From the UHGV virus genome UHGV-1421593: DNA of 32,886 nucleotides; one strand, written 5' to 3'. Below, piece by piece: positions 4,626 to 5,821 of this stretch. The notes under the pieces were generated by a model. The model ran no database searches. It was not told where the DNA came from and saw nothing but the letters and a program-made list of their open reading frames with translations. The translations under genes were made by a program, and so were the position numbers. Source of the stretch: a virus. Each line of letters starts with the position of its first letter. The stretch's first letter is position 1.

Positions 4626-4925
4626 TTGAAGGTGCATATGTTAAAAGTTACTGGTCTTGATAAGCTTCAGAAAGAACTCAAGGATGCAAAGCGTATACTG
4701 AGTGAGCTGGATGGCGAGCTAGGAGTCGTAAAGTTTAACCCTAACGACCCTGCTAGCATCGAGTCGGCAATTCAAACAGTTAATCACATGATTGATGAAC
4801 GCATTGGCGGATGTTCAACCAACTCCATAGTCGGCTCGCTTGCGCAGCAGATGAAGGAAACATACAGAGAAGGCATTCTTAAAAAAGCTGCCGAAGCCAG
4901 ATTGACTTCAAGTGAGGATGAGTAA
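4626..4925 (+). CDS. Hypothetical protein, first gene of a two-gene cassette
   Basis: 99 aa; its stop overlaps the start of the next ORF by 1 nt (TAATG). Alternative start at ATG 4638. Confidence 0.5.
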   Translation: MKVHMLKVTGLDKLQKELKDAKRILSELDGELGVVKFNPNDPASIESAIQTVNHMIDERIGGCSTNSIVGSLAQQMKETYREGILKKAAEARLTSSEDE

Positions 4926-5821
4926 TGGCTCAAGATATTTTTTCTGAAATGAACAATGCTGTTCTGGATTTACAGGCTTCACAATACCAGACCTTTGAAC
5001 GTCCACTCAAAAAGCTTGCTCAGCTTCTAAAACATTCCGATCTTGAATCATACAATGCAGACCTGACTGAAGGACTCAATCTTACAGAGTTTCTCGCAGA
5101 AAGTGAGAAGACTGGAGGAAGTATGGCTGGGAGTGCCCAGCTTGTCTGGCCAGATGATGCAAGAAAAACACTAGGCCTTACATTACTTTTGATTTTTAAG
5201 TTAGCAGAAGATCCTAATTATGCAATCAACTTTGGACATCATTTTTTCTATTCCGGAAGTAAAGTTATAGCAGGCATTCATTCGATTACAGGACAACTTA
5301 TCATTCCTTTCGTTAGAGATTACAAAAATTATGTTCAGTCTAAGGGAAGCACAGAAACTATGTTGAAGCCGCAGTTTTCGAACAAAGTTTTCATTGTTCA
5401 TGGTCATGATGATGGCGCCCGTGAAACAGTCGCAAGGTTTCTTGAACGTATAGGTTTAGAAGCAATCATATTACATGAGCAAGCTAATCAGGGACGAACT
5501 GTCATTGAGAAAGTTATAGCAAATAGTGATGTTGGATTTGCTGTTGTATTGCTAACACCAGATGATGAAGGTTGTGCTAAAGGAGGAATACCAGAACCAA
5601 GGGCAAGGCAGAATGTAATGCTAGAATTAGGATATTTTATCGGGCGTTTAGGCAGAGAGAAAGTATGTGCACTAAAACGCGGCTCACTAGATATTCCAAG
5701 TGATTTTGCTGGGGTTGTTTGGGAAAATATGGATAGCAGTGGAGGCTGGAAGCAAGCACTCGCACGAGAACTTGAAGCTGCTGGTCACAATATTGATTGG
5801 AATAAAGCAATGCGGAGTTGA
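4925..5821 (+). CDS. Two-domain protein with C-terminal TIR-like domain
   Basis: C-terminal ~140 aa: KVFIVHGHDD...AIILHEQ...FAVVLLTPDDEG...NVMLELGYFIG, the strand-helix pattern and conserved Glu typical of bacterial TIR-like domains (compare ThsB RVFFSFHYQD...CVLIG...YEI). N-terminal ~160 aa unassigned. Confidence 0.55.
   Translation: MAQDIFSEMNNAVLDLQASQYQTFERPLKKLAQLLKHSDLESYNADLTEGLNLTEFLAESEKTGGSMAGSAQLVWPDDARKTLGLTLLLIFKLAEDPNYAINFGHHFFYSGSKVIAGIHSITGQLIIPFVRDYKNYVQSKGSTETMLKPQFSNKVFIVHGHDDGARETVARFLERIGLEAIILHEQANQGRTVIEKVIANSDVGFAVVLLTPDDEGCAKGGIPEPRARQNVMLELGYFIGRLGREKVCALKRGSLDIPSDFAGVVWENMDSSGGWKQALARELEAAGHNIDWNKAMRS

Follow-up and report, generated by a model that had tools for sequence, protein, structure and literature searches.

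TIR domains that hydrolyse NAD+ are a well-known output of bacterial immunity, and how these effectors switch on is usually unknown. The closest described cases include the Cap12/TIR-STING proteins of the anti-phage systems that signal through cyclic oligonucleotides (CBASS; SfSTING 7un8, and 9lmq and 9lmr), in which a sensor domain is fused to a TIR effector and the known members are switched on by oligomerisation, and PycTIR (8jsj) of the Pycsar systems. We analysed a two-gene cassette in the virus genome UHGV-1421593, a stretch of 32,886 nucleotides (nt) that is referred to here as the window. The cassette encodes a 95-amino-acid (aa) protein of the YuaX family and a 298-aa protein, which is composed of a helical N-terminal domain (N-domain) and a C-terminal TIR domain. 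It is a real, coherent and conserved two-gene unit, and represents a new sensor variant on a known TIR effector theme. In our favoured reading, which we consider probable, it is a self-contained anti-phage system of the abortive-infection type, carried as cargo by an Escherichia coli prophage. This reading draws on the domains, the conservation of the glutamate E234, the pairing and overlap of the genes, the fusions, the swapping of effectors, and a context of mobile elements and defence islands. The genes lie as follows.

4638..4925, + strand: yuaX-like gene; 95 aa, acidic three-helix protein, PF27363 'YuaX'
4925..5821, + strand: gene of the 298-aa protein, ATG start
4923..4927, + strand: TAATG stop/start overlap in the sequence, base 4925 being common to both genes

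Comparison with described systems

Like the Cap12/TIR-STING proteins, which are its best profile and fold matches, the 298-aa protein carries a PF10137 TIR and conserves the catalytic glutamate and the R-x-N-V-x-x-E-x-G-x-F motif. It differs from them in that the cassette lacks a CD-NTase as well as a STING or SAVED ligand domain, its TIR lies C-terminal to a novel helical domain, and a small partner is required by synteny. Membership in CBASS was rejected: the NCBIfam Cap12 equivalogs NF050171 and NF050172 reached just 36 and 31 bits, far below their cutoff of 450, and aligned only with the TIR region, and no CD-NTase gene is adjacent in the window. Nor were CD-NTase or SMODS among the 25 most frequent of 115 families found in 135 neighbours at 45 loci. 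PycTIR shares a C-terminal PF10137 TIR, a length of about 300 aa and a profile match (E=1e-6) over the TIR, whereas its N-terminal domain is unrelated and the cassette has no adjacent PycC cyclase. Pycsar membership was also discarded, as the PADLOC PycTIR model matched aa 201-270 only (E=1e-8) and no cyclase is adjacent in the window or in the Pseudomonas aeruginosa, Vibrio or Serratia loci. Thoeris failed as well, since the helical 95-aa partner has no effector domain and no ThsB-type TIR was matched; in the Pfam search of the 298-aa protein, ThsB_TIR gave no match and TIR_2 only E=0.097, below threshold.

PDC-S35 of PADLOC and PHROG 16442, both of them candidates from defence or phage contexts, resemble the TIR half. 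PDC-S35 is defined as a single gene, whereas the cassette is a near-obligate pair with YuaX, and the N-domain is not covered by it. Another likeness is to the AbiJ-NTD-type abortive infection (Abi) proteins (Anantharaman et al. 2013, PMC3710099), which join a helical N-domain of about 140 aa to interchangeable toxic C-terminal domains. The partners given there for AbiJ-NTD1 include Ymh, DUF4145 and a flavodoxin-fold 'nucleoside deoxyribosyltransferase', a repertoire that overlaps with the one described below; the likeness seen is one of size, helical content and partners. In contrast to AbiJ-NTD1, no AbiJ-HEPN, HKD, kinase or REase domain was found among 44 relatives that lack a CAP12-type TIR, and the text of the paper, as searched, does not mention a YuaX partner.

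CapRel and SDIC1 offer a functional parallel, in that a toxic effector is checked by a small partner or domain, possibly also the phage sensor. SDIC1 of Serratia is, moreover, a two-gene TIR system whose partner relieves toxicity (bioRxiv 10.1101/2024.01.28.577318). A relationship to it was rejected: SDIC1A has an N-terminal TIRAP-like TIR and another C-terminal domain, its partner has a UBC-like fold, and there is no relation in sequence.

The 298-aa protein carries a CAP12/Pycsar-type TIR domain

The protein divides into the following parts.

4925..5347, + strand: N-terminal all-helical domain, aa 1-141, from the AlphaFold2 model and alignment; no Pfam family
5348..5383, + strand: inter-domain linker, aa 142-153, of which aa 142-150 are disordered (pLDDT, the predicted local confidence, below 50); from the AlphaFold2 model
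5384..5812, + strand: CAP12/Pycsar-type TIR domain, aa 154-296, predicted NADase effector, from hidden Markov model (HMM) matches, the model and Foldseek
5624..5626, + strand: GAA codon of E234, predicted catalytic glutamate, invariant and aligned to Cap12, SfSTING and PycTIR

The initial annotation, made from the sequence alone, had proposed a C-terminal TIR-like domain of the CBASS/Pycsar kind, and this was borne out by the Pfam HMM, by profile matches to solved chains and by fold search. Pfam PF10137 (CAP12-PCTIR_TIR) matched aa 154-270 with E=4.8e-38 and 130.3 bits (gathering cutoff 24.7), spanning profile positions 1-118 of 119. All five PADLOC HMMs of PDC-S35 matched the TIR half with E=1e-40 to 1e-70; their alignments cover only aa ~128-295, at profile positions ~115-277 of 278 or 106-262 of 264, and leave the N-terminal ~40% of the profiles unaligned. 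The PHROG profile phrog_16442 matched the C-terminal half (E=7e-52), and the TIR effector models of PADLOC for CBASS and Pycsar matched the protein too. When a profile of the family was compared with the PDB, the only matches were chains of Cap12 (9lmq, 1e-11; 7un8, 3e-8) and PycTIR (8jsj, 1e-6).

The AlphaFold2 model (pLDDT 86.5) consists of a helical N-domain, a disordered linker and an alpha/beta TIR. In a Foldseek search of the PDB its top ten matches were TIR-STING filaments (7un8, 9lmq, 9lmr) with E=5e-5 to 6e-4 and probability 1.0, followed by the TIR-APAZ protein of the short prokaryotic Argonaute system SPARTA; Rcl (4fyi) was among the weak matches. The search did not lead to an unrelated Rossmann-like family lacking the glutamate.

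The three motifs singled out in the initial annotation fall on invariant columns (F156/V158/H159/G160/D162; V208/L209/T211/D213/D214/G216; R226-V231/E234/G236/F238). The glutamate it had pointed to in MLELGYF is E234, which is invariant in 20-22 diverse homologues and aligns with the glutamate of the NVVFEFG sequence of 9lmq and 7un8 and with that of PycTIR 8jsj, where the sequence is NVHLEFG. The glutamate of this NVvFEFG motif is the catalytic residue of SfSTING. By analogy with these proteins, the TIR domain is predicted to be an NADase that acts through E234.

The N-domain, which the initial annotation had left unassigned, has no relative that we could find in Pfam, NCBIfam or the PDB, and neither STING nor SAVED was matched in the Pfam search. 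Its conserved features are a loop G-S-x-x-L-x-W-P (G69, L73, W75, P76) and a second motif, P128-F-x-R-D132.

YuaX and the 298-aa protein form a conserved pair

The initial annotation had described the N-domain and the small partner as not matching a familiar system layout, and this holds. The partner is a member of PF27363 YuaX, a recently created family of no known function. PF27363.1 is assigned to each of the 120 homologues listed, some of which are 98-99% identical to the protein in the window, and to the upstream gene in every locus read; the assignment was taken from precomputed annotations of these homologues, the local Pfam release being older than the model. The predicted structure of the acidic protein has three helices with pLDDT >90. 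We detected no helix-turn-helix (HTH), ribbon-helix-helix (RHH) or AbrB domain in Pfam and NCBIfam scans, and no effector domain in Pfam, PADLOC, NCBIfam and PHROG scans.

A scan of one genome per GTDB species with a YuaX-only profile turned up 61 loci, which belong to alpha-, beta- and gammaproteobacteria and to one metagenome-assembled genome of the Desulfuromonadaceae. An N-domain/TIR gene lies directly downstream in about 54 of the 58 YuaX loci that are complete on their contig, and the stop and start codons overlap by -1 or -4 nt at 54 of 68 loci. Judging by its sequence, the TAATG overlap in the window is a translational coupling of the yuaX-like gene and the gene of the 298-aa protein.

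Similarity to every other host is limited to 4638-5821, with DNA identity of about 72-78% and protein identity of 82-85%. This confinement indicates that the two genes are a transferable unit. Across beta- and gammaproteobacteria the proteins stay more than 80% identical while identity of the DNA has fallen to about 73%, a sign of strong purifying selection. Recent horizontal transfer was considered as the cause of the high protein identity and rejected, since DNA identity is only ~72-78% and does not extend beyond the two genes. Identities in the closest cross-genus group are about 70-75% for YuaX, about 77% for the N-domain and about 88-90% for the TIR; the sensor half (YuaX and N-domain) thus evolves faster than the TIR in this group.

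Most homologues are found outside phages, predominantly on plasmids, integrative and conjugative elements (ICEs) and chromosomal islands. Out of 72,556 plasmid records, YuaX is present on 996 and the N-domain on 933, mostly from Klebsiella and E. coli. A search of 50,697 phage records returned only five weak matches, limited to the TIR region, and no DNA nearly identical to the cassette or to the first 12 kb of the window.

Divergent YuaX-like genes without an N-domain/TIR gene were seen in Sphingomonads (locus L052, 1166-1895; locus L064, 5548-6273). Their neighbours are presumably a small open reading frame (ORF) that is DUF2188-like by its motif, and a putative pair of an XRE-type regulator and a metallopeptidase-like protein. 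YuaX may have a life outside the N-domain/TIR system at such loci.

Fusions and exchange of the C-terminal domain

A HMMER search with the N-domain alone, run exhaustively, recovered 254 cluster representatives. In at least 21 among the best 150 of these 254, YuaX is fused in front of the N-domain in a single chain, and two of the fusions, P0295 and P0308, carry the same TIR as the 298-aa protein. Other relatives have different C-termini on the N-domain, namely TIR_2 (4 cases), HEPN-type Ymh (PF09509), DUF4145, transmembrane helices or unassigned sequence. Contigs were examined for unfused members whose C-terminal domain is DUF4145, TIR_2 or unassigned, and in each of them a YuaX gene overlaps the 5' end. 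Ymh and DUF4145 are HEPN families tied to abortive infection (PMC3710099).

Since relatives put other toxic domains at the position of the TIR, the TIR occupies an effector slot. The initial annotation had allowed it to be either an NAD+-hydrolysing or a signal-generating module; the comparison of domains favours a role in the effector slot, and the Thoeris-like signal generator was not upheld. YuaX and the N-domain would in turn be a constant input module, used with at least five kinds of effector.

In P0278, P0283, P0290, P0300, P0310, P0318, P0319, P0338 and P0345, the TIR is replaced by a C-terminal domain of about 130 aa that has no Pfam match. It carries the motifs VQTGxHSVANV and IPGHDKDEILELVEDSKxELxKxKPN and has a Gly/Ala-rich end, and it takes the place of the TIR in many YuaX-N-domain fusions. 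We regard this recurrent domain as a candidate new effector domain.

A proposed mode of action

We propose that YuaX and the helical N-domain together make up a sensor or regulator module, either split or fused. Translational coupling would provide YuaX and the 298-aa protein in a fixed stoichiometry, and their complex, formed by YuaX and the N-domain, would hold the CAP12-type TIR inactive. A phage-derived cue acting on YuaX, the N-domain or both would release or reorganise the complex, whereupon the TIR domains might self-associate, as in TIR-STING, PycTIR and SPARTA, and form the Glu234 active site. The loss of NAD+ through hydrolysis would then halt both the infected cell and its phage. 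We infer the four properties on which this scheme turns: NADase activity, activation by oligomerisation, phage sensing and protection.

Several points weigh against this interpretation. Toxin-antitoxin pairs, too, classically have a small overlapping gene upstream and are found on plasmids, ICEs and integrons. Housekeeping genes are numerous among the 135 neighbours of the 45 loci (raw counts). That NAD+, as opposed to another nucleotide, is the substrate of a CAP12-type TIR in this architecture is assumed from homology. In addition, we found no publication on the YuaX/N-domain/TIR pair in a searched literature that excluded most subscription journals, and no paper on PDC-S35 in the same literature. 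A DefenseFinder label 'TIR-I' (PMC13656390) could not be traced, and a recent tool might already name a related system.

We also put forward, more tentatively and as something that could well turn out otherwise, that YuaX and the N-domain define a previously unrecognised, widespread and modular two-component anti-phage family, in which a split or fused sensor is combined with interchangeable suicide effectors (CAP12-TIR, TIR_2, HEPN, membrane or unknown). Such a family would have a member on the F plasmid, would be present on about 1.3% of plasmids, and might contribute to plasmid-borne phage exclusion, with possible relevance to phage therapy. An input module of 95 and 140 aa with no detectable relative of known function would offer a convenient model in which to study a new principle of sensing. 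Besides the F plasmid, hundreds of clinical plasmids of Klebsiella and E. coli have the pair; should it block phages, it would bear directly on the host range of phages in therapy and on the interpretation of decades of work with F+ strains.

Alternative explanations

The strongest competing explanation is that the cassette is primarily an addiction or toxin-antitoxin module of a type II-like kind, in which a labile YuaX would neutralise a constitutively toxic TIR NADase and thereby stabilise the prophage, plasmid or ICE, with defence secondary and arising from host shut-off. The layout is the same, a small upstream gene overlapping the larger gene of a putative toxin (TAATG here; -1 or -4 nt in 54/68 loci). 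The pair is also frequent on ICEs and on F-type and Klebsiella plasmids (996 records), one Vibrio pair lies near ParDE in an integron array, and in the unrelated SDIC1 the partner relieves the toxicity of the TIR protein. The fit is worse for the fusions: in at least 21 of the best 150 representatives YuaX is covalently joined to the N-terminus of the supposed toxin, which suits poorly an antitoxin that is degraded separately. Fused antitoxin-sensors do exist, CapRel being an example. Furthermore, YuaX is acidic with no DNA-binding domain typical of type II antitoxins detected, and the supposed toxin has a conserved regulatory domain of its own, of 140 aa. Weighing the shared layout against the fusions and the undetected DNA-binding domain, we judge this explanation unlikely.

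A second alternative is that the cassette renders the prophage another service, either as a counter-defence enzyme directed at immune nucleotides of the host, or as an enzyme with a TIR-like or nucleoside 2-deoxyribosyltransferase fold that does not target NAD+. Its position between lysozyme and packaging genes would suit such a role, as would the kinship of the PF10137 fold to nucleoside deoxyribosyltransferase-like flavodoxin folds, of which the weak Foldseek match to Rcl (4fyi) is an instance; fusions of this fold are described as nucleoside deoxyribosyltransferase in PMC3710099. Against it, the closest solved relatives by both sequence and fold are NADase TIRs, and most homologues are not in phages (5 weak TIR-region matches in 50,697 records), which makes counter-defence in particular improbable. 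We consider this alternative very unlikely.

The least probable alternative, to which we give hardly any weight, is Thoeris-like signalling, in which the TIR would make a nucleotide messenger on infection and YuaX or a host factor would execute: bacterial TIR domains can generate signals, and many two-gene TIR operons have newly been validated as Thoeris types (bioRxiv 10.64898/2025.12.03.692087), but the TIR here belongs to a family, CAP12/PycTIR, in which the characterised proteins are effectors that deplete NAD+ and which the authors of that study discarded as effectors, the Thoeris and TIR_2 models did not match above threshold, YuaX is a soluble helical protein of 95 aa without an effector-like domain, and the HEPN and transmembrane domains that relatives have at the TIR position are effectors, not signal synthases.

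Translation start and regulatory signals

The signals around the genes are these.

4347..4376, + strand: promoter-like site TTAACA-18-TATATT, 10/12 in the consensus scan, weak and the best one 5' of the cassette
4629..4634, + strand: Shine-Dalgarno-like AAGGTG read from the sequence, 3 nt before ATG 4638
5873..5907, + strand: inverted repeat or hairpin with 17-nt arms, about 50 nt past the stop codon, without a U-tract

Both ORFs exist where they were first placed, at 4626..4925 (99 aa from a TTG) and 4925..5821 (298 aa), with a 1-nt overlap. The small ORF is thus present, and what is doubtful is the length of 99 aa: TTG 4626 is probably four codons too early, and ATG 4638 gives 95 aa. The N-termini of all 120 listed YuaX homologues read M-x-K-[IV]-T-G-L-D-K-L, with a length of about 95 aa; ATG 4638 is the start called by the Prokaryotic Genome Annotation Pipeline (PGAP) in E. 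coli MS 115-1; the DNA resembles that of other hosts from about 4638 on; and AAGGTG is placed accordingly at 4629-4634.

The extended -10 element of its own that the initial annotation had given the cassette was not recovered, as the consensus scan contained no TG-extended -10 site. A TGATAAT at about 4617-4623 lies only ~14 nt before ATG 4638, too close to accommodate the Shine-Dalgarno element. Promoter-like sites are not in excess in the region (4 observed, 6.4 expected in shuffles). The proposed terminator had no counterpart either: the scan gave none on the + strand after 5821. The hairpin at 5873-5907, where the folding z-score of the surrounding region is only -1.7, is at best a non-canonical terminator. 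No RNA family reached the gathering threshold in an Rfam scan of the window, msr/msd RNAs of retrons included.

Prophage and genomic context

The window corresponds to a prophage integrated beside ybiT, and its cassette is 100% identical in E. coli MS 115-1 and 2021CK-01361. Its principal other genes are listed below.

114-1619: large serine recombinase
2544-3892, - strand: tail/baseplate-like genes, DUF2163/baseplate hub and distal tail protein
3800-4285: T4-type lysozyme
6132-6680: small-terminase-like gene (terS-like)
7187-8956, - strand: retron reverse transcriptase-Toprim, type I-C, Ec67-like (PADLOC PDLC02963, E=7e-216)
12247-14130: large terminase (terL), 627 aa, intact in the window

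As first described, the cassette lies between lysis and packaging genes, with the T4-type lysozyme upstream and the small-terminase-like gene downstream. The retron reverse transcriptase, which PGAP annotates in MS 115-1 as 'retron Ec67 family', is 1.4 kb downstream of the cassette. The region from 4.3 to 12.2 kb, with the TIR cassette and the retron, is a defence island of the prophage in its terminase-gene region.

The prophage was found in 7 of 5,426 complete E. coli genomes, all seven with the cassette. Identity is 95% for the tail/lysozyme flank and 99% for the cassette in four of these genomes; in PSS-15, where an IS2 is inserted, the values are 76% and 95%. Identity being higher in the cassette than in the flank, the cassette is either more conserved than the prophage backbone or exchanged between related prophages.

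On the F plasmid (NZ_CP011496, 44750-45929; locus L013, 4995-6174), a homologous pair has the anti-phage gene ppl on one side and pifA/pifC on the other, a position that makes it part of an F-plasmid defence island. Identity to the pair in the window is 46% for YuaX and 51% over the full length of the N-domain/TIR protein. ICEs of P. aeruginosa and relatives carry the pair as cargo, in one case next to a TIR/caspase operon, and in Serratia it adjoins an AAA_15/21 ATPase pair. The 135 nearest neighbours at the 45 loci include integrases, transposases, GajA, type I restriction-modification methylases, SLATT, Mrr and HipA. In one Vibrio (locus L007, GCA_031153055.1), 1667-6286 contains eight attC-like repeats, each about 130 nt long, at spacings of 436-1093 nt; they form a chromosomal integron cassette array with ParDE, which ends about 1.4 kb upstream of the pair. 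The conserved block in Vibrio also includes ORFs of 61 and 182 aa upstream of the pair.

In MS 115-1 an IS3-family element interrupts the large terminase gene (locus L001, 15847-17701), and this copy of the prophage is probably defective; the window, with its intact gene, probably comes from 2021CK-01361 or a strain like it. The tail/baseplate genes at 2544-3892 directly follow the integrase module; they lie at a distance from the main structural operon (12-33 kb) and run opposite to it, an unusual layout.

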